Shown here in pieces: positions 11,099 to 21,571 of a stretch of DNA of 54,909 nucleotides. Positions within the stretch are counted from its first letter, which is position 1. Each line of letters starts with the position of its first letter. The DNA is from a virus. Lineage: Duplodnaviria > Caudoviricetes. Location of the stretch: positions 1 to 54,909 of the IMG/VR virus record IMGVR_UViG_3300021425_000049; one strand, given 5' to 3'. The notes beneath the pieces are model-generated. The model was not told the DNA's origin. It made no database searches and saw only the letters and a program-made list of their open reading frames with translations. The translations under genes and the position numbers were made by a program.

Positions 11099-12280
11099 AT
11101 GTCAGAACTATTAGAAAGCCGTTGGAATGATACCAAGTCAGCACTTCTTGAAGGCCTAGGTGGCACAAAGAAAGCAGTTATGGCTACTACACTTGAGAAT
11201 ACTCGCAAGTATTTGGCTGAGACTGCAACAGCAGGTGCTACTTCAGCAGGTAACATTGCAACTTTAAACCGTGTGATCCTACCAGTGATCAGACGTGTAA
11301 TGCCAACAGTTATTGCAAACGAACTAGTTGGTGTGCAACCAATGACTGGTCCAGTTGGCCAGATTCACACTCTACGTGTTCGTTATAGCGATACACAAAA
11401 CGCAACTGGAACAGACAATGATGTAACAGCAGGTGATGAAGCACTAAGCCCATTCAAAATTGCTGAAGCATATTCAGGTGATGGCACAGCCGGTAAAGCA
11501 GCAGCAACAGCAGCTCTTGAAGGTAGTGCAGGTAACCGTCTAAGCATCCAGATCTTAAAGCAAACAGTTGAAGCTAAAACTCGTAAGTTGAGCGCACGTT
11601 GGACTTTCGAAGCTGCACAAGACGCACAGTCACAGCACGGCATCGACGTAGAAGCAGAGATCATGGCTGCTCTAGCACAAGAAATCACTGCTGAAATTGA
11701 CCAAGAAGTTCTTGGTTCACTAGATTCACTAGCTGGTGGAGCTGCTGAAACATACAACCAATCAGCGGTATCAGGCACAGCCACTTTCGTTGGTGACGAA
11801 CATGCTGCTCTAGCTGTTCAGATCAACAGAGTGTCAAACCTAATCGCTCAGCGCACACGCCGTGGCGCTGGTAACTGGGCAGTTGTTAGCCCATTTGCGC
11901 TAACAATTCTACAGTCAGCGACAACTTCAGCATTTGCTCGCACAACTGAGGGCACATTTGAAGCACCAACAAACACTAAACTAGTTGGAACTCTAAACAA
12001 CGCAATGAAAGTATATGTAAACACATATGCTGGCGACGATGCAGCAGTTCTAATCGGTTACAAAGGTTCAAGCGAATCAGATGCAGCGGCATTCTACTGC
12101 CCATACATCCCGCTAATGAGCTCAGGTGTTGTTCTAGATCCGTCAACATTCGAACCAACCGTATCATTCATGACACGTTATGGTTATGTTGAACTAACAA
12201 ACACTGCGTCATCGCTAGGTAACGCAGCTGACTACCTAGGCAAAGTTGATATTACTGACACAGCAGTAAGCTTCAGCTAA
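11099..12280 (+). CDS. gp23: Major capsid protein
   Basis: VIRRVMPTVIANELVGVQPMTGP, VEAKTRKL, AFYCPYIPL, FMTRYG. Confidence 0.96.
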   Translation: MSELLESRWNDTKSALLEGLGGTKKAVMATTLENTRKYLAETATAGATSAGNIATLNRVILPVIRRVMPTVIANELVGVQPMTGPVGQIHTLRVRYSDTQNATGTDNDVTAGDEALSPFKIAEAYSGDGTAGKAAATAALEGSAGNRLSIQILKQTVEAKTRKLSARWTFEAAQDAQSQHGIDVEAEIMAALAQEITAEIDQEVLGSLDSLAGGAAETYNQSAVSGTATFVGDEHAALAVQINRVSNLIAQRTRRGAGNWAVVSPFALTILQSATTSAFARTTEGTFEAPTNTKLVGTLNNAMKVYVNTYAGDDAAVLIGYKGSSESDAAAFYCPYIPLMSSGVVLDPSTFEPTVSFMTRYGYVELTNTASSLGNAADYLGKVDITDTAVSFS

Positions 12281-12302
12281 GTCTATGTAGACATAAAAAT
12301 AC

Positions 12303-12329
12303 AAAATAGGCCCTACGGGGCCTATTTTT
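12303..12329 (+). terminator. Rho-independent terminator
   Basis: AAAATAGGCCC-TACG-GGGCCTATTTT after the major capsid gene. Confidence 0.9.
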
Positions 12330-12358
12330 ATGATAAGTAGTTCTAGTGGAGATACAAT

Positions 12359-12556
12359 ATGCCAATTGGAACAATTTACAAATATAATTCAAAAAGAAAG
12401 TTCAGTGTAATTAGACCTAAAGAATGGAAGACTGAATTGTTTGATGTCTTGTTTGAAACAAAAAGTTTTGCATGTAAATTAGGGGACAAAGTTGAGTATG
12501 ATGAAAAAGTAGTCAACGGAAAAAAATATGCAGAAAATTTAAAAAAAGTTGAATAA
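12359..12556 (+). CDS. Divergent cold-shock-domain (OB-fold) protein
   Basis: 65 aa; GTIYKYNxxRKFSVIRP..DVLF..LGDKVEY..AENL parallels CspA GTVKWFNxxKGFGFITP..DVFV..GQKVEF..AANV; GGAG SD. Confidence 0.6.
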   Translation: MPIGTIYKYNSKRKFSVIRPKEWKTELFDVLFETKSFACKLGDKVEYDEKVVNGKKYAENLKKVE

Positions 12557-12561
12557 AAAGG

Positions 12562-12590
12562 TTGACCTACTTAGGTTTATTTGCTATATT
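12562..12590 (+). promoter_or_regulatory. Sigma70-type promoter
   Basis: TTGACC (12562-12567), 17 nt spacer, TATATT (12585-12590). Confidence 0.75.
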
Positions 12591-12596
12591 ATAAAC

Positions 12597-12847
12597 ATAA
12601 CAAAGACGACGGTCCGAGTTAGATAGTGCAAGGAAACGCTGCTTGGTAGAGGCAGTAACTTGGCTAGTAGCTGTAGTGGCAGCGCATGAGCATGGAGACA
12701 TGAAGATGCGTATTTTGGAAGTAACTATCCGATGCTAGGCTCCGCTGAATTAATGGACAGGATCTGTTGAGGCGGTTGTTGGTAATCCTTAATCCAACCT
12801 ATCAATATTATAAGGAAGGTCTGCTATATTTTAGCAGGCCTTTTTTT
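12597..12847 (+). ncRNA. Candidate ~250 nt structured non-coding RNA
   Basis: Bounded by a sigma70 promoter and an intrinsic terminator; no sense ORF; many helices including a GAGA tetraloop hairpin and potential pseudoknots. Confidence 0.7.
12816..12847 (+). terminator. Rho-independent terminator
   Basis: AAGGTCTGCTA-TATTT-TAGCAGGCCTT followed by a T run. Confidence 0.85.
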
Positions 12848-12875
12848 ACACATTATAACCCATTTTTTCTTATTT

Positions 12876-12964
12876 GATAAATACTTATGTCTAACAGCGA
12901 GCCGCGAGGCGGACTTATGCAGGAACCCACTGCGTAGACCTAGAACGTCAAAAAGGAGAAAACA
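12876..12964 (+). promoter_or_regulatory. Late promoter GATAAATA plus structured 5' leader
   Basis: GATAAATA 12876-12883; hairpins GCC-GCGA-GGC and TATGCAG/CTGCGTA; AGGAG SD. Confidence 0.55.
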
Positions 12965-13330
12965 ATGGGACGTCCAGTAAATAAAAGAAACTTCGGTGCA
13001 ACCGGTGTTGATGCAACACCTACAGTGCCAATTAGATTCCACGATGGATCAAGCCTTATTGAAGGTAAAATACTTTCACAAAGAGGAACAAACAAATTTA
13101 ACTGCTCAAACGACGGTGATACAATCACAAGAATTTGCAGATTAACATCAGATGGTTCTGCTCCAAATGCAGAATTTGAAGCACAAATAATCGGTATAGC
13201 AGCAGGCGGTAATGCAGTAGCTATTAAAAAACTGTTTAACAGAACAGCAGTTGATTATGATAACAATCGTTATACATGGACAACTGAAGACGACTCGACA
13301 GAATCACTACTACGTTTGACAGCTATCTAA
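12965..13330 (+). CDS. Hypothetical protein, probable virion component
   Basis: 121 aa; strong SD; late promoter; first gene of the fibre operon. Confidence 0.75.
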   Translation: MGRPVNKRNFGATGVDATPTVPIRFHDGSSLIEGKILSQRGTNKFNCSNDGDTITRICRLTSDGSAPNAEFEAQIIGIAAGGNAVAIKKLFNRTAVDYDNNRYTWTTEDDSTESLLRLTAI

Positions 13331-14896: not shown

Positions 14897-17800
14897 ATGA
14901 AGTTTTTTAAGAGACAAACCATACATGAGAGAAAGGTCGGAGACGGTAGTATAATACTGACTGCTGACGGTAATGTTGAAATTACTCCTCCAAGCGGAGA
15001 GGTAACAATAGATGGTAATGTCAACATTTCCGGAGATGCCTCTGGACCAAAAACAACTGATGTATTATATGTTAGCCAAGATGGCGACGATGCAAACGAT
15101 GGGCGCAGCGAAGGAAAGTTTGGTGCTAAAAGAACTATCAAAAGTGCAGTAGAACAGTCTGTTCCTGGAACAACAATTATTGTTGCACCAGGTGATTACT
15201 ATGAAAACAATCCAATTACTTTACCTGACTTTGTAACTATAACAGGGCAAGGCGAACTACGTAATACAAGAATATTTCCAAAAAATAACACACAAACAAT
15301 TTTTTATGTAGGTAACGGTTGTTATCTATACCAGTTAACATTCCGTGGTTTAAGATATCCAGGCTGGTGTGCAGAAATACGTCCAGGCACACTTTGCACA
15401 ACCTCACCTTATATTCAAAACTGCACAAACATGAATGGTCCTTGGCTTAATGATGGAACAGAATTTATACCTTTTGAAACAGTTCAAATAGAAGGCATCG
15501 AACCTAGTGCAAGACCACTGATGGTTGAGGATTATCCAGATTTACCATTTGACAAACAAATAAATGACACTGGCGGCGGTGGAGGTATGTATGTCGATGG
15601 TGACGCATACGATCCTGCTTCGCTTGTGTTTTCATTTGTTGCAGACGCATTTACGCAGATTGCTCAGGGTGGTATAGGATTCTGGATTGATAACTTTGGT
15701 TATACTCAAATCGTTTCTTGCTTTACAGTTTTCTGTTCAACAGGATTTAAAACTACAAACGGCGGTTACCTGTCAATTTCAAACTCAGTTAGTGACTTTG
15801 GATTAGAAGGTTGTGTTGCTGACGGGTTTTATCCAATTGCATACACCACAGCAAAACCTACCCAAGACTATTTTTCAAGTGTAGCTAGTGTGACTGTAGA
15901 TAATCCTGGCGCAGGGTATACATCAGCACCTACAGTTACTTTTGAAGCACCTGAAGGTGCTGGCGGAATTACTGCTACAGGCACAGCAGACATTGATAAC
16001 ACAACAGGTAGAGTTTCTGGAGTAACAATTCTAAATGGAGGAAGCGGGTATACTAGAATTCCTTCAGTTACATTTTCAGGAGGCGGACCTACTGTTGACG
16101 CCCAAGGTATTGTAAACTTATCAAGTAACACAGTTATACAAATTGACAGTTTGAGAGACAAGCCGGCAACAGGTAGTATTATAAAATTCCAAGAGGACGA
16201 CACATACTATTTCATTACTGGTTCTGAAATAGTTCAGCCTCCTTTTGTTTACGATGAGGACGTATGTAGAAGAGATACAAGGCGAATAATTGATGCTGTA
16301 ACCGGGGATGTTGTTCTAGGAACAACCTATCAATCTCAAGCAGCAGCTACAAGTTATTTACGTGCTACAGCAAGCAAAGTTTTACTCGATCAATTAGCAC
16401 CTACAGTTTATGCATTAGAAGCAGCTAGAGACTACATGAAAGCTGAAATTACTAATGAAGCAATGAAGGATGAAATTGATCAGCGCTTTAACATTATTAC
16501 CAGCACATTAAATGCGGGTGATAGCAGTGTTATACCAGAAGCTGGCAGTGATTTGGTTTTAAATGATCTACCAGATATTGATCCAGGTATAAAACAAGCT
16601 AAAGACAACATCTTAGATAATAGAGATTTTATTATTGAAGAAGTAACTGCATACATAAACGATCAGTTTACAGAACTCAGCTACAACCAATTGCAATATG
16701 AAGAAGATATGCAAAATCTAATAAAAGGTATTGCAATGTATGTTGCTTTAGGCAGCAATCAACATGTTGTTAGATTAGGACAAGAAATTGAGATTAGAGC
16801 TAGATTTAAAACATTGTATATCAACAGTTTTAAATTTATACAAAATGCACTAGAAAATCTTGCTCAAGTCCAAGCAGATGCTACAGCTTTAGAGCGTGTA
16901 ACTGAAGGAATGAATACGTTTGTTAACATCACAGACGATGGCGATAGCAGTCTTATTGTAATCGATATTCCAAATCACGATGGTGCATCAGGAACTTCAA
17001 ATCCAAAAGACGCAAAGGATCAATTGCTTGCAAACAAAGATTTTATAACAGCTGAATTTGTTGCCTATATACAAAATGAAAATCCTGATTTTACAATTGA
17101 TGCAGCACAGTTTGAATTAGACTTTGAAAGATTTGTAGAAGCATTAGCATTTGACGTGTTGTATGGTGGCGATAGTGCTACAGTGCAAGAAACCAAATAC
17201 TATTATGGAAATTTTGATTTTACTGCTCTAGAGTCAACTGAATTACAAACAATGGTTGATGCATTTGCAAGAATGAGATTTGTATTAGGAAGAGTTGTTA
17301 GAGGACTATTTGTAACAAAAACACCAGGCAATGCTGAATCACAGGACTTTTCACAACTAACAGCAACAGCCAGTGAAGCTGATGCTATTGATGCTTTGTT
17401 ATTCAACACACAAGATGTTATTGAAAATCTTACACTTACAAGATTGCCTACTGAAAAAACATATCCAGTTTTTGAAACAGAAGCGCAAGCATTGCAAGAT
17501 GCAGCAAACACAGTATTAGGCCAAGAAACAATAATTATAGCTAATGCACAAGCAGATATAAATGCTACATATCCTACGCTTACTTACAACATAGACAAGT
17601 GTAAACGTGATGTAGGATATATTATTGATGCTGTGTATATTGATGCACAATTGGAATCAAACCACAACAGTATTACAGCCGGTCTTGCTTATCACAGAGC
17701 AAACACTGCGTATTTGAATGTTGAACAAAAGCCAGCAACAATTATAGCATTATTAGAAGCTAAAAGATTGAGTGTAGATGCAGCAGCTAGAGATGTAAAT

Positions 17801-20800
17801 TTTGCTAATAGAGTAGATGCTCTTTGGACAGATGTAATCAATCTAATACAATATGATCAGTTACCAAGCGAAGGAACTGAATATACTGTTCCTGGCCCAG
17901 CAAGCAATGAACTTATATACACACGAGATCAGTTGGTAGCCAACAGAGATTTCTTAAAAGCAGAAACCACTGCATACATTAACAACAACTACTTTGTATA
18001 CGACCAAGCCAAGTGCGAAAGAGACACTGGTTTAATTATTGATGCTGCTTATTATGATGCTGCATTAGGAACGAATTACAATGCAGTAACAGCAGGTCTT
18101 GCTTATCAGAGAGCAAACAGTGCATATGTTCAAAGCGATCAACAAACAGAAACTGTTGCTGCAATCAATTTTGCAAAAGGCGAAGCTAGCACAGCAACAG
18201 CAGGCGATGCTACTGCACAAAGTCGTGTTGAAGCAGCATTTGATGAAGTAGTTGATATTATTGTTAACGGAACAACCAGCACAGATGATGCTGCTGATAC
18301 ACTAGTATGGAACACAGTAAACTTACAAACTGCATTTCAGGTTCAAGCAAAAAATCAACTGCAAAATAACAGAGAATTTTTAGCAGCAGAAGCAGTAGCA
18401 TTTATTGAAAATAACTATGTAAACTTTACTTACGACCAGGCCAAGTGTGAAAGAGATATTGGCCTAATGTTGGATGCAGTAGCACTTGATGTTGCACTTG
18501 GAACAAACTATAACAGTGTTACAGCAGGTCTTGCTTATCAGAGAGCAAGTAGCAGTGTAGTTCAAGACGGTCAGCTATTACAGACAAAAGCAGCAATTGA
18601 ATTTTTAAGAGATGCAACAGTTCTTTTAGGATTTACTCAAGATGCAGAAACAAGAGTATTAGCAGGTTTTAACGAAATAATTGATATACTTGAAAATGGA
18701 GTTGTTAGCACAGATACAGCAGCAGATGCATTGGTATTTCCAACTCCAACAGGAGCAAGTGCAGACAAAGTTGCAGCAAAAGATCAATTAATTGCAAATA
18801 AAGAATTTATAAAAGATGAAATTATAGCATGGATTGCTGCAAACTTTCCAAGTCTAACATATGACTCAACCAAATGCGAAAGAGATGTTGGTTATATTGT
18901 TGATGCATTGTGTCATGATATTTTATACGGAGGAAACTTTGCAACTCGAACAGTGGCAAACAGCTACTTTGTAGATGGAGTCAGTCAACTAGGCGATCCT
19001 GCAGAAGAAGCTGCAACGGCAGATGCTTATGGAAGATTAGCAGATATTGTAGGCGATATTGTAATTGAAGCTGCTGTAGTTAAAACACCAGCAAACGCAT
19101 TAAATCAAGACACAACAGGCACTCCAGCAAGCTCTACAGAAGCAGATGAAGTATCGGGCTTAGTCCAAGTTATAAGACAAGTTATTGCAGATGGCAATTT
19201 AACAAGTCTTCCAACAGAACAACTTCCTAGTGTGCTTTGGGCAACAGTAGATTATCAGCAAGGTTACAATACTATTAAAGGCAACAAAGTATTGCTTCAA
19301 ACTGATACAACTGACTTTATATCAGATACCTTCCAAAGTTTTACATTTAACACTGATAAATGTAATAGAGACACAAAATACATTGTTGATGCACTAACGT
19401 ATGATATCTTTTATGGTGGTAATAGTGCAAGTGTTGAAGCAGCAAGAAGCTACTTTGTTGGTGCCGTTAGTCAAGTTGCTGGACAGCAAACCGAAACAGC
19501 AAATGCCTTAGCATATATTTCTACAATAATTAGAGATGTGTTACTAGATGTAGCGGTTGCAAATCCAGAACAAACTGATGAAACACAAGATACAACTGCA
19601 AGCACTGCTACTAATGATGAAGTTACAAAAGCACAATCATTACTACAGACTTTCCAGGATGTAATTATCAACGGAATTGATAATCTTCCTACTGTAACTT
19701 ATCCAAATGCAAATCCAATTACACCAAGTGAATTAAGCATACAGGCTGCTGTTGATAATTTAGCATCTGAAAAATCTACTATTATTACAGATACAATAGA
19801 CTTTATTTCAACTACATACAATGGATTTAGTTATGACGAAGATAAATGTGCTAGAGATGTAGGATACATTGTTGACGCTGTTGTTCACGATGCATTATAC
19901 ACAGGTAATTATGCTACACTGGTAGCAACTAATGCTTATTTCTTAGGAGCAGCGCAATACATTCCTCCTAGTCAGGTTTCACAAACTGTAGATGCATTTA
20001 CACATTTGAAATCAGTAGCAGGTGAATGTATTAAAGGTGTTGCTGTTACTCCTACACCAGGAAATGCAGAAACACAAGTTTTAGGTGGAAATTACGGCAC
20101 CACAATAGAAGAAGCAACATGCGATGATTTATTTGATCTTGTAATTGATGCTATTAATACAGGTGGCACAGTAGGACCTCAGTATACACAAGTATTACCA
20201 GACTTTACTTGGTTAAGTGATGCAACAAAATTGGTTGCAGCAGATCTACTAAGTCAAAAAGCCATAATACAAAACACTGTTATTACATACATTACTGATA
20301 ACTTAATTGGTTTCGAATACAATATTGACAAGTGTAAAAGAGATACAGGTTATATTATTGATTCTGCAATATACGATATGATGTATGGCGGTAACAAGCA
20401 AACTAAACGTGCAGCAGAAGCATATTATAATGGAGCAATCCTAGGTGCTGCAAAAGTCGGAAATGCAGATCAAACCTTAGTAACTGCCTATACATATTAT
20501 CATTTGGCAAATGTAATGCAAAAGGTAGCAAACAATGTTGCTATCACAAAGAGTTATAATAACCCGGAAACGCAAGATTTAAGTATACCAGATGGATCTA
20601 CCATAGGCGGTGATACATTAAAAATACTAGTTGATAGAATAGGTTTAGCTATACAACAAGAGTATACTACAGGTTGGACACAACTAGAACACAACTATCT
20701 ATTAGGTAGTAGTGAATACTTAGAAGATCGAAATACAATTCTCGAAGCCGAAGATTCAATTGTAGATAATACTATTGCAGACTTGAATTTACAATTTGGT

Positions 20801-21571
20801 GGTATTGCTAACATTACAGTATTCCCAGGAGTTGTAAGTGTAACTACAGATAAATTTGCTGCACTTTATAACGTGTCAACTATTTCAACATCGGGTCATG
20901 CCTTTGAATACGTAGGTGCTGGTATAACATACAATGCACTTCCGTTCTTTGGCGGAACTGCAATACCTGAAGAAGAAATTAAAGAATCAAACCAAGGTAA
21001 AGTGTTTGCCGGAGGCACAGTTGACCAAATTGGTAACTTTAGAGTTGGTAACTTCTTTGCAGTAAATGCTCTTAATGGTAGTATTACACTTAACGCTAAT
21101 CAATTAAACCTAAGCGGTTTAACAAGTATTGGACCACTGATTAGAGACGGTGTGCCAGTTGGTGTTGAGATGAAAGAAATCAGCAACAACCCAGCATTGT
21201 TAGCAAGCACAGGTGCAATAGATGCAAACACTGTTCCTACACAAGCAGCAGTTTCAACATATGTTGAAAACAGATACTTAAACAAACTTACAGGTGGCAC
21301 TGTAAACGGTAGCACAACGTTTGATATTGACGTAACTGTTGACGGAACTTTAATTCTAACAAATAACGATTTAGAAGTTCAATACGGCGGAACGGGTGTA
21401 AGCGAATTCACAGAAGATGGTATTTTGTATGGTGACACTGCTAACCCTATAAAAGTTACGGCAGCAGCAGGCACATCCGATGCAACAGACAGTTTCCAAA
21501 TACTCACTGTAACAAGTGATGTTGATAGCACTCCAATATGGACTGACACAATTGATGGTGGTAGCTTCTAA
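14897..21571 (+). CDS. Giant fibre/appendage-like protein: beta-helix domain with 10 phycobiliprotein-like repeats
   Basis: N-terminal YVSQDGDDANDG..RTIKSA..PGDYYE beta-helix cap; repeats Yx3KCxRDxGYIxDA..D..YGGN; C-terminal IDGGSF. Confidence 0.8.
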   Translation: MKFFKRQTIHERKVGDGSIILTADGNVEITPPSGEVTIDGNVNISGDASGPKTTDVLYVSQDGDDANDGRSEGKFGAKRTIKSAVEQSVPGTTIIVAPGDYYENNPITLPDFVTITGQGELRNTRIFPKNNTQTIFYVGNGCYLYQLTFRGLRYPGWCAEIRPGTLCTTSPYIQNCTNMNGPWLNDGTEFIPFETVQIEGIEPSARPLMVEDYPDLPFDKQINDTGGGGGMYVDGDAYDPASLVFSFVADAFTQIAQGGIGFWIDNFGYTQIVSCFTVFCSTGFKTTNGGYLSISNSVSDFGLEGCVADGFYPIAYTTAKPTQDYFSSVASVTVDNPGAGYTSAPTVTFEAPEGAGGITATGTADIDNTTGRVSGVTILNGGSGYTRIPSVTFSGGGPTVDAQGIVNLSSNTVIQIDSLRDKPATGSIIKFQEDDTYYFITGSEIVQPPFVYDEDVCRRDTRRIIDAVTGDVVLGTTYQSQAAATSYLRATASKVLLDQLAPTVYALEAARDYMKAEITNEAMKDEIDQRFNIITSTLNAGDSSVIPEAGSDLVLNDLPDIDPGIKQAKDNILDNRDFIIEEVTAYINDQFTELSYNQLQYEEDMQNLIKGIAMYVALGSNQHVVRLGQEIEIRARFKTLYINSFKFIQNALENLAQVQADATALERVTEGMNTFVNITDDGDSSLIVIDIPNHDGASGTSNPKDAKDQLLANKDFITAEFVAYIQNENPDFTIDAAQFELDFERFVEALAFDVLYGGDSATVQETKYYYGNFDFTALESTELQTMVDAFARMRFVLGRVVRGLFVTKTPGNAESQDFSQLTATASEADAIDALLFNTQDVIENLTLTRLPTEKTYPVFETEAQALQDAANTVLGQETIIIANAQADINATYPTLTYNIDKCKRDVGYIIDAVYIDAQLESNHNSITAGLAYHRANTAYLNVEQKPATIIALLEAKRLSVDAAARDVNFANRVDALWTDVINLIQYDQLPSEGTEYTVPGPASNELIYTRDQLVANRDFLKAETTAYINNNYFVYDQAKCERDTGLIIDAAYYDAALGTNYNAVTAGLAYQRANSAYVQSDQQTETVAAINFAKGEASTATAGDATAQSRVEAAFDEVVDIIVNGTTSTDDAADTLVWNTVNLQTAFQVQAKNQLQNNREFLAAEAVAFIENNYVNFTYDQAKCERDIGLMLDAVALDVALGTNYNSVTAGLAYQRASSSVVQDGQLLQTKAAIEFLRDATVLLGFTQDAETRVLAGFNEIIDILENGVVSTDTAADALVFPTPTGASADKVAAKDQLIANKEFIKDEIIAWIAANFPSLTYDSTKCERDVGYIVDALCHDILYGGNFATRTVANSYFVDGVSQLGDPAEEAATADAYGRLADIVGDIVIEAAVVKTPANALNQDTTGTPASSTEADEVSGLVQVIRQVIADGNLTSLPTEQLPSVLWATVDYQQGYNTIKGNKVLLQTDTTDFISDTFQSFTFNTDKCNRDTKYIVDALTYDIFYGGNSASVEAARSYFVGAVSQVAGQQTETANALAYISTIIRDVLLDVAVANPEQTDETQDTTASTATNDEVTKAQSLLQTFQDVIINGIDNLPTVTYPNANPITPSELSIQAAVDNLASEKSTIITDTIDFISTTYNGFSYDEDKCARDVGYIVDAVVHDALYTGNYATLVATNAYFLGAAQYIPPSQVSQTVDAFTHLKSVAGECIKGVAVTPTPGNAETQVLGGNYGTTIEEATCDDLFDLVIDAINTGGTVGPQYTQVLPDFTWLSDATKLVAADLLSQKAIIQNTVITYITDNLIGFEYNIDKCKRDTGYIIDSAIYDMMYGGNKQTKRAAEAYYNGAILGAAKVGNADQTLVTAYTYYHLANVMQKVANNVAITKSYNNPETQDLSIPDGSTIGGDTLKILVDRIGLAIQQEYTTGWTQLEHNYLLGSSEYLEDRNTILEAEDSIVDNTIADLNLQFGGIANITVFPGVVSVTTDKFAALYNVSTISTSGHAFEYVGAGITYNALPFFGGTAIPEEEIKESNQGKVFAGGTVDQIGNFRVGNFFAVNALNGSITLNANQLNLSGLTSIGPLIRDGVPVGVEMKEISNNPALLASTGAIDANTVPTQAAVSTYVENRYLNKLTGGTVNGSTTFDIDVTVDGTLILTNNDLEVQYGGTGVSEFTEDGILYGDTANPIKVTAAAGTSDATDSFQILTVTSDVDSTPIWTDTIDGGSF
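16243..20797 (+). repeat. Tandem ~140-162 aa protein repeats (10 units, 8 with CxRD)
   Basis: Cys codons at 16265, 17600, 18014, 18446, 18875, 19361, 19847, 20333; Cys-less units near 16690 and 17105. Confidence 0.9.

Follow-up and report, generated by a model that had tools for sequence, protein, structure and literature searches.

The RNA class manA (RF01745) is, to our knowledge, filed in Rfam as a cis-regulatory riboswitch candidate whose ligand has never been found. In the accessible parts of the literature, the textbook view of it is that of a putative cis-regulatory 5′ leader (PMC2864571; PMC9964418), and Weinberg et al. (2010; PMC2864571), who drew it with a feature marked 'pseudoknot?', rated it a riboswitch candidate. 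The available part of a recent preprint (Ren et al., 2026; bioRxiv 10.64898/2026.07.01.735769) describes five manA RNAs that, by cryo-electron microscopy, assemble into decamers, octamers or an icosahedral cage of 60 subunits. The accessible literature on manA, the supplementary data of which may hold such cases, makes no mention of free-standing copies in giant phages. Here, we describe what appears to be such a copy, at positions 12562–12847 of the IMG/VR virus record IMGVR_UViG_3300021425_000049, all 54,909 bases of which were analysed (the window; the record is estimated to be 15% complete). The phage of the record is, to judge from its genes, an uncultured giant gp23-type myovirus. Positions given are those of the window, and features lie on its plus strand unless otherwise stated.

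Assignment of the RNA to the manA class

No Rfam family matched the window at gathering thresholds. In a permissive run, manA aligned over the whole of its model (positions 1–192 of 192) to 12603–12808 with 33.9 bits, the E-values being 5.3e-7 (701 bases searched) and 9.9e-9 (whole record). Two results count against membership of the class: the score is lower than the manA gathering cut-off of 55.2 bits, and none of the 16 closest loci has an Rfam manA match above that cut-off.

Membership is argued for by three further results. The first is a reverse test on the canonical manA RNA of Prochlorococcus phage P-SSM2, which Rfam scores at 181.6 bits and which ends 16 nt ahead of a coding sequence annotated purL. 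When searched with R1, a covariance model built from 82 members of the window RNA's own clade only (it gives 220.4 bits for the window at 12600–12807), the P-SSM2 RNA was matched at the same coordinates and over the full model (1–207 of 207) with 35.1 bits, the next best match there having 6.1 bits. (Rfam found no manA in Syn9 or S-RSM4.) The second is agreement in the bases of loops and junctions with P-SSM2 and the Rfam family, both these RNAs and ours being phage-borne: a GACG-type 5′ loop (CGACGG), AGUG following the closing stem, junction and loop bases of UAAC type, and the 3′ hairpin UUGUUGGUAAU...CCAACCU. The third is that R1 detects eight further diverged RNAs in the same place behind gp23, and that at this position in eight diverged sister loci the Rfam manA model scores 79.9, 78.6, 56.4, 55.7, 55.5, 53.3, 49.8 and 49.8 bits, five of which pass the cut-off.

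The order of helices over the full model is likewise that of manA, with a 5′ hairpin, a closing stem, a long hairpin, a four-way junction that bears three hairpins, and two 3′ hairpins. Both of the manA loop–loop complementarities have counterparts, if we have matched them correctly to the published labels: UGGU/ACCA would correspond to UAGU/ACUA here, and CUGUA/UACAG to AGGA/UCCU. The closing stem differs, being GAUAG/CUAUC in the window RNA and GGGAG/CUCCC in manA.

Because the reverse model match, the agreeing loop bases and the sister loci above the Rfam cut-off point the same way, we regard the window RNA as a diverged manA-class RNA, related to the catalogued RNAs by homology and not by resemblance, and a continuous series appears to run from catalogued manA to it. 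The earlier note on this DNA had been unable to assign the RNA to a known family, had proposed a comparison with Rfam, and had accepted that a match to a described family would remove the novelty. With a full-length manA match, a reverse match, and five of eight sister loci above the cut-off, the novelty of kind is gone: the kind is already known, and this RNA would be a diverged member of it. Nothing in the present results favours any of the roles that had been suggested for it (ribozyme, protein sponge or anti-defence RNA).

Homologues, fold and loop contacts

Relatives were sought in IMG/VR among the best 80 capsid-gene loci, in which the RNA was recognized in 16 by blastn and in 24 by R1 (many of the capsid-gene loci without it end soon after gp23), and by a pattern scan, which gave at least 120 stretches. 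From the matches listed, after removal of duplicates and of four rows, 82 distinct full-length cores were aligned. Three candidates (L096, L112 and L104) were dropped as homologues, as they shared the seed pattern and nothing beyond it, and a further locus, L138, was left out of the pair counts because its copy is truncated. In L138 (4191–4411) the RNA ends after its GAGA-capped hairpin and is joined straight to the motif GATAAATAC and a freshwater-2 leader (two elements discussed below), as if the 3′ half of the RNA had been lost by a natural deletion. Among 50,697 phage records searched at the DNA level, the one match was short (91 nt) and unrelated.

The core of the RNA, approximately 210 nt (12602–12803), is made up of many helices, which we number from 5′ to 3′. 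P1 is the 5′ hairpin with the GACG loop (12602–12617; core pairs 12605–12607 with 12612–12614). The rest of the manA-type core (12622–12803), delimited by the Rfam alignment to manA positions 1–192, RNAalifold, pair counts and R1, is closed by P2, in which GATAG (12622–12626) pairs with CTATC (12799–12803). Within it lie the long hairpin P3 (12629–12632 with 12659–12662, and 12638–12644 with 12650–12656), the junction helices P4 (12664–12669 with 12733–12738), P5 (12670–12672 with 12678–12680), P6 (12682–12687 with 12706–12711, and 12691–12694 with 12699–12702, capped by GAGA at 12695–12698) and P7 (12715–12719 with 12728–12732), and the 3′ hairpins P8 (12742–12746 with 12771–12775) and P9 (12778–12782 with 12794–12798).

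Folded singly, the 252-nt sequence reaches −80 kcal/mol (z −2.80), and 2 of 200 shuffles fold as well. RNAalifold, given 14 sequences and no family model, placed 44 pairs, of which 24 showed compensatory changes, and without recourse to the Rfam model recovered the stems of the closing helix and of the junction, together with the long middle hairpin and the two 3′ hairpins. When the full drawing was laid on the 82 rows, 89.7% of cells were paired, compared with 76.1% in column shuffles, and the covariation score was 0.428 as against 0.190 in shuffles (0 of 500 reached it) and 0.07–0.11 with the 3′ partners slid. For a 22-row diverged alignment, which includes seven diverged sister RNAs and P-SSM2 and, having been fitted to the model, leans towards it, the corresponding values were 95.8% paired and a score of 0.776 versus 0.227, with 50 of 56 pairs changing on both sides. 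Every helix that varies in the 82 rows changes on both sides, including all six pairs of P1 and all ten of the GAGA-capped middle hairpin; the closing stem GAUAG/CUAUC and the helix CAAG/CUUG are invariant in those rows and covary once diverged members are added (five of five and four of four pairs). The inner part of P8 as drawn was paired in only 59.1% of cells, and was removed from the model.

Six of the eight pairings put forward in the earlier note covary over the 82 homologues: GCTGCTT/AGGCAGT, CTAGTA/TGCTAG, CGCAT..CATG-GAGA-CATG..ATGCG, CCGC/GCGG, GTTGG/CCAAC and AGGA/UCCU. The other two gain no support. The helix CCGAGTTA/TAACTTGG was rejected for lack of covariation (83.8% of cells paired, individual pairs being broken in as many as 25 of the 82 rows), as was the pseudoknot GATAGT/ACTATC that was supposed to cross it, which shows no changes on both sides in the 82 rows; the two together muster only seven cells with such changes. 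The alignment gives these strands other partners, GAUAG being the 5′ strand of the closing stem, while ACUA makes a loop–loop contact with UAGU of another hairpin. That contact, the 5′ GACG hairpin, CAAG/CTTG and two small hairpins had been missed.

Two loop–loop contacts emerge. The one that had been offered only tentatively before, AGGAT/ATCCT, proves to be the best-supported tertiary contact: AGGA(U) at 12759–12763, in loop L8, pairs with (A)UCCU at 12785–12789, in loop L9, and four of the five pairs change on both sides. Pair 12759–12789 is AU in 37 rows, GC in 21 and CG in 9, and pair 12760–12788 is UA in 35, GC in 20, AU in 12 and CG in 1; in an unbiased mutual-information scan of complementary column pairs over the whole alignment, the latter ranks first and the former eighth. 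In the other contact, UAGU at 12674–12677 (L5) pairs with ACUA at 12724–12727 (L7); 95.4% of cells are paired and one of the four pairs changes on both sides (AU in 58 rows, GU in 8, GC in 7, others in 9), which makes a moderate case for L5–L7 pairing.

A separate covariation, outside every drawn pair, links positions 12785 and 12790 of loop L9, which flank UCCU (AU 45, UA 24, GU 7, UG 4, GC 2; mutual information 0.99).

A self-contained transcription unit

The RNA is preceded by a sigma70-type promoter (12562–12590) with a −35 element TTGACC at 12562–12567, a −10 element TATATT at 12585–12590, a 17-nt spacer, and TG at 12582–12583; by the consensus scan it agrees with the consensus at 10 of 12 positions, with TG ahead of the −10. 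As this AT-rich stretch is roughly twice as rich in promoter-like sites as its shuffles (12 in 3 kb, compared with 6.8 ± 2.6), the match by itself would be weak. Its conservation, which bears out the promoter previously proposed, is more telling: among the matches listed, TTGACN-N16-18-TAnnnT lies 25–36 nt ahead of the closing stem in 84 of the 87 distinct instances with at least 70 nt of upstream DNA (the exceptions being L084, L156 and L185), with TGn in 68 of the 84, and the promoter is also kept in all seven diverged sister loci examined. Transcription would start near A12595–A12597 and, to go by the type of promoter, may be early.

The unit ends in an intrinsic terminator (12812–12847), in which 12812–12826 forms 15 pairs with 12832–12846 and a U7 run occupies 12841–12847. 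The hairpin (fold of 12806–12850) reaches −20.1 kcal/mol (z −6.61), a value matched by none of 200 shuffles. The consensus scan had listed only two minus-strand terminator sites and not this plus-strand one, so that the terminator read from the sequence in the earlier note owes its confirmation to folding and conservation. In 85 instances the DNA past the core is long enough to be judged. By our own script, a hairpin and T-run lie within 90 nt in 55 of them, tRNA-Gly starts 11 nt past the core in three, and the other 27 show neither feature (at least one of these, L091, has a terminator outside the criteria of the script); the majority of the 27 run into other conserved structured-looking RNA modules or tRNA arrays. 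The terminators of homologues occupy the same place and are of unrelated sequence, the core being conserved. The layout of promoter and terminator recurs in each of the seven diverged sister loci examined, of which five exceed the Rfam cut-off. As had been claimed, there is no sense open reading frame (ORF) of note: the plus-strand ORFs over the RNA are very short and TTG-started (31 aa, 12643–12738; 36 aa, 12767–12877), and the minus strand has one of 44 aa.

The RNA does not occupy the 5′ untranslated region of a protein gene, given its own promoter, the terminator or tRNA that comes after it, and the separate promotion of the next gene. In 71 of 88 instances it follows a gp23 gene of the same strand, at 119–1383 nt (median 293), yet 12 instances with the full 1.8 kb of upstream DNA have no gp23 there; the gene therefore moves as a cassette.

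Where no terminator directly follows, the downstream DNA is varied. In L086, L094 and L142 (the three loci scanned with aragorn, and the source of the tRNA-Gly count above), and also in L029 (4499–4570), a tRNA begins a few bases past the fold, and the RNA would be released through tRNA processing. At least five distinct conserved structured-looking modules come after the manA-type RNA in other loci, often where the RNA does not lie behind gp23, and one module has a long closing helix of approximately 18 pairs; they fall into the groups L088/L124/L145/L152/L162/L198/L201 (the first ~110 nt past the fold), L089/L114/L168, L099/L154/L159/L147, L105/L133/L173/L195 and L108/L190, and look like further RNA genes of one RNA island. 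In L157, L172 and L188, what comes after the fold is a short ORF that has a ribosome-binding site (RBS), and then a tRNA array led by tRNA-Trp.

Contigs from RNA libraries give some further information. Small shares of a 1.6-kb stretch around the gene are held by 18 RNA-library runs, and contigs of three metatranscriptome runs (of four aligned) cover 12610–12825, with pieces free of differences at 12713–12798 (depths 308 and 261) and 12648–12741 (depth 83). The three covering runs have three study codes but the same year and habitat, and possibly belong to one campaign; the fourth run, X2, has three low-depth contigs, none of them on the RNA. These contigs give weak support to the presence of a transcript of the RNA gene. 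In X1, X3 and X4, 12286–12555 and 12826–12933 have little or no cover, and gp23 and the RNA have much, an observation not counted as evidence here, since uncovered parts and contig depths give neither an expression ranking nor transcript ends.

Covariation, the conserved promoter and terminator, and the RNA-library contigs together support the view, already taken in the earlier note, that the stretch is the gene of a functional, structured RNA with a transcription of its own, neither coding nor a chance feature.

Possible mode of action

We think it reasonably probable that a diverged manA-class RNA has a self-contained gene at this locus, the discrete product of which (approximately 250 nt) acts in trans, with loop contacts that would join copies into closed oligomers. 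A host-type, sigma70-like extended −10 promoter would start the RNA near 12595–12597; the RNA would fold into the 5′ GACG hairpin and, behind it, a core that GAUAG/CUAUC closes and that holds the long hairpin, the four-way junction (its middle hairpin GAGA-capped) and the two 3′ hairpins; and the intrinsic terminator would end the transcript at approximately 12847. A discrete RNA acting in trans is suggested because promoter, fold and terminator all belong to the unit that ends at ~12847; we infer from this that the product exerts no leader control over the next gene.

The oligomeric part of the proposal is by analogy with other manA RNAs. In the accessible text of the preprint, pentamers are held by intermolecular L5–L7′ and L8–L9′ kissing loops, another variant uses an L6–P6′ GNRA contact as well as L5–L7′ and L3–L8′, and related manA RNAs reach pentamers via different interfaces (Ren et al., 2026). 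With helices counted as above, L6 here is GAGA, L5–L7 is UAGU/ACUA and L8–L9 is AGGA/UCCU, so these complementarities and the GNRA loop might serve as contacts between molecules, and copies might be joined into pentamer-based closed oligomers, from decamers up to 60-mer cages. A more daring version, which we put forward only tentatively, is that abundant free-standing manA RNAs assemble in infected giant-phage cells as RNA-only, pentamer-based shells, that the covariation of the loops is the footprint of selection for this, and that one subclade has swapped its L8–L9 interface. If this were true, manA would be a natural RNA cage selected in vivo, neither an in-vitro curiosity nor a riboswitch.

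Several observations weigh against the proposal of a trans-acting, oligomer-forming RNA. The equation of our helix numbers with the labels of the preprint is our own, and the assemblies reported in its available part were obtained in vitro only, by refolding in 10 mM MgCl2 (Ren et al., 2026). Covariation cannot separate intramolecular from intermolecular contacts. P1 forms just three pairs in the window itself; two of the four L5–L7 pairs never vary, and nine of the 82 rows break the one that is informative. L8–L9 complementarity is absent from a subclade of ten rows (L092, L114, L127, L155, L156, L166, L182, L185, L188 and L190), in which L8 is a short hairpin with a small A-rich loop and L9 is UAGAAUGUAAU, UAGACUGUAAU or similar; this suggests that the subclade uses a different tertiary or quaternary contact, which would echo the differing pentamer interfaces of the preprint. 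The RNA-library contigs carry no strand, ends or level, and may include DNA carry-over. Finally, R1 found no copy in four cultured giant-phage relatives (Vibrio phage 2.275.O, Phosso, PA5oct and GAP32), an empty result that carries little weight.

That the RNA instead acts in trans as a monomer, its loop contacts being intramolecular pseudoknots and its compact fold serving as a sponge or sensor for a protein or small molecule, seems to us rather doubtful, even though all the sequence data fit it: the evidence for a free-standing gene serves it equally, the covariation of L5–L7 and L8–L9 suits intramolecular pairing just as well, and a 'pseudoknot?' is what Weinberg et al. (2010; PMC2864571) drew in manA. 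Its difficulties are that no protein or ligand partner is known, and that the sole structural data for the family, as far as given in the preprint, put these very loops at intermolecular interfaces (Ren et al., 2026).

It is improbable, in our judgement, that the locus is a cis-acting riboswitch or attenuator, with the manA fold as aptamer, the hairpin at 12812–12847 as expression platform, and a ligand gating read-through into the ORF at 12965 and the genes beyond. This would agree with the classification of manA as cis-regulatory and with the canonical copies just ahead of genes, as in P-SSM2, at least in the accessible text (PMC2864571), and with the distance of the terminator from the fold, ~10–45 nt in the 55 of 85 instances. 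Yet the terminator and the closing stem do not overlap, 8 nt parting 12803 from 12812. Moreover, the sequences of terminator stems vary freely among homologues whose core is conserved, and accordingly no conserved alternative pairing was seen by inspection of the alignment, no systematic search for anti-terminators having been made. A terminator is, besides, replaced by a tRNA in three instances and by further RNA modules in many others, and the downstream gene has a late-type promoter motif of its own, GATAAATAC, as well as a freshwater-2 leader.

Least of all do we favour a processed 3′ piece of the messenger of gp23 or of the small ORF behind it, with an incidental promoter-like site, for although most copies of the RNA lie downstream of gp23 and on its strand, the gp23 unit is closed by a terminator of its own (12303–12328), and in 84 of 87 instances the promoter keeps a fixed spacing to the fold, only L156 and L185 among the 12 without gp23 lacking the motif.

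Neighbouring genes and elements

The upstream neighbour of the RNA is the gp23-type major capsid gene (11099–12280; Pfam PF07068 Gp23, E 5.1e-98; PHROG 138, major head protein), itself preceded by genes for a prohead protease and a conserved protein of 364 aa (Pfam, PHROG). The nearest cultured relatives of the capsid protein, at 66–70% identity, are those of Vibrio phage 2.275.O, Sinorhizobium phage Phosso, Pectobacterium phage CBB, Cronobacter phage GAP32 and Pseudomonas phage PA5oct, and the order protease/364-aa gene/capsid is common to these cultured giant myoviruses. The hairpin and T-run that close the gp23 unit at 12303–12328 fold at −17.8 kcal/mol (z −5.69; the consensus scan had placed the site on the minus strand). 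Between gp23 and the promoter of the RNA, and outside the RNA, the ORF list has one frame of 65 codons (12359–12556), for which no Pfam or PHROG family was found. In five sister phages a glutamine riboswitch (RF01739, 43–55 bits by Rfam) lies between gp23 and the manA gene (L013, 4234–4281; L040, 4236–4282; L014, 3972–4021; L039, 4233–4280; L061, 4666–4713); Rfam gave no glutamine riboswitch match in the window, where the 65-codon ORF occupies that interval. A tRNA scan of the window found none.

Downstream, the motif GATAAATAC (12876–12884), found in 12 of 14 rows of the close alignment and in six of seven diverged loci, stands ahead of the leader of the next gene; from its likeness to the T4 consensus, TATAAATA, it would be a T4-type late promoter. 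Approximately 17 nt further on begins the freshwater-2 leader (RF02980; 12901–12967, 45.7 bits against a cut-off of 49.9), an element separate from the RNA gene, the 3′ end of which holds the RBS and start codon of the ORF at 12965–13330. The same leader occurs above the Rfam cut-off, and at the same position, in ten sister loci (L013, L040, L078, L004, L032, L060, L050, L014, L061 and L039); a literature search on freshwater-2 returned unrelated papers only. Beyond the small genes that come after the RNA is an ORF of 2,224 codons (14897–21571).

Comparison with known systems

Riboswitches that terminate transcription resemble this locus in having a complex conserved fold with a hairpin and U-run close behind. 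They differ in that fold and terminator do not overlap here, and no conserved competing helix was seen by inspection of the alignment; here, too, the terminator can be replaced by a tRNA or other RNAs, and the next gene is separately promoted.

GOLLD and ROOL often adjoin tRNA genes in phages, and tRNAs likewise come after some of the manA-type homologues described here. With OLE, they are large phage- or bacteria-borne RNAs which, in the accessible part of the source, form RNA-only multimers (10.1101/2024.12.08.627333); they share with the manA-class RNA a structured, non-coding nature, the lack of a known protein partner and, for manA RNAs in vitro, RNA-only self-assembly. They are, on the other hand, several-fold longer, and Rfam found no match to them in the window.

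Closer parallels are the manA assemblies themselves. The interface loops L5–L7′ and L8–L9′ and the GNRA loop L6, as reported in the available part of the preprint (Ren et al., 2026), have complementary, covarying or GNRA (GAGA) counterparts here; the particles were seen in vitro with, as far as can be told, other manA RNAs. The covariation of the interface loops named in the preprint is an independent reason, drawn from sequence, to test assembly in cells.

Compared with catalogued manA, finally, the window RNA belongs to a giant gp23-type myovirus and not to a cyanophage, and has its own promoter and terminator in place of a position in a 5′ leader. The Rfam threshold misses a whole subfamily (none of the 16 closest loci passes), and a model such as R1 would improve the annotation of uncultured giant phages. 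The manA-type RNA of this locus and of 80-odd relatives has its own conserved promoter, and a terminator, a tRNA or further RNA genes close it off; it is therefore unlikely to be a leader, and would fit an RNA product in its own right.

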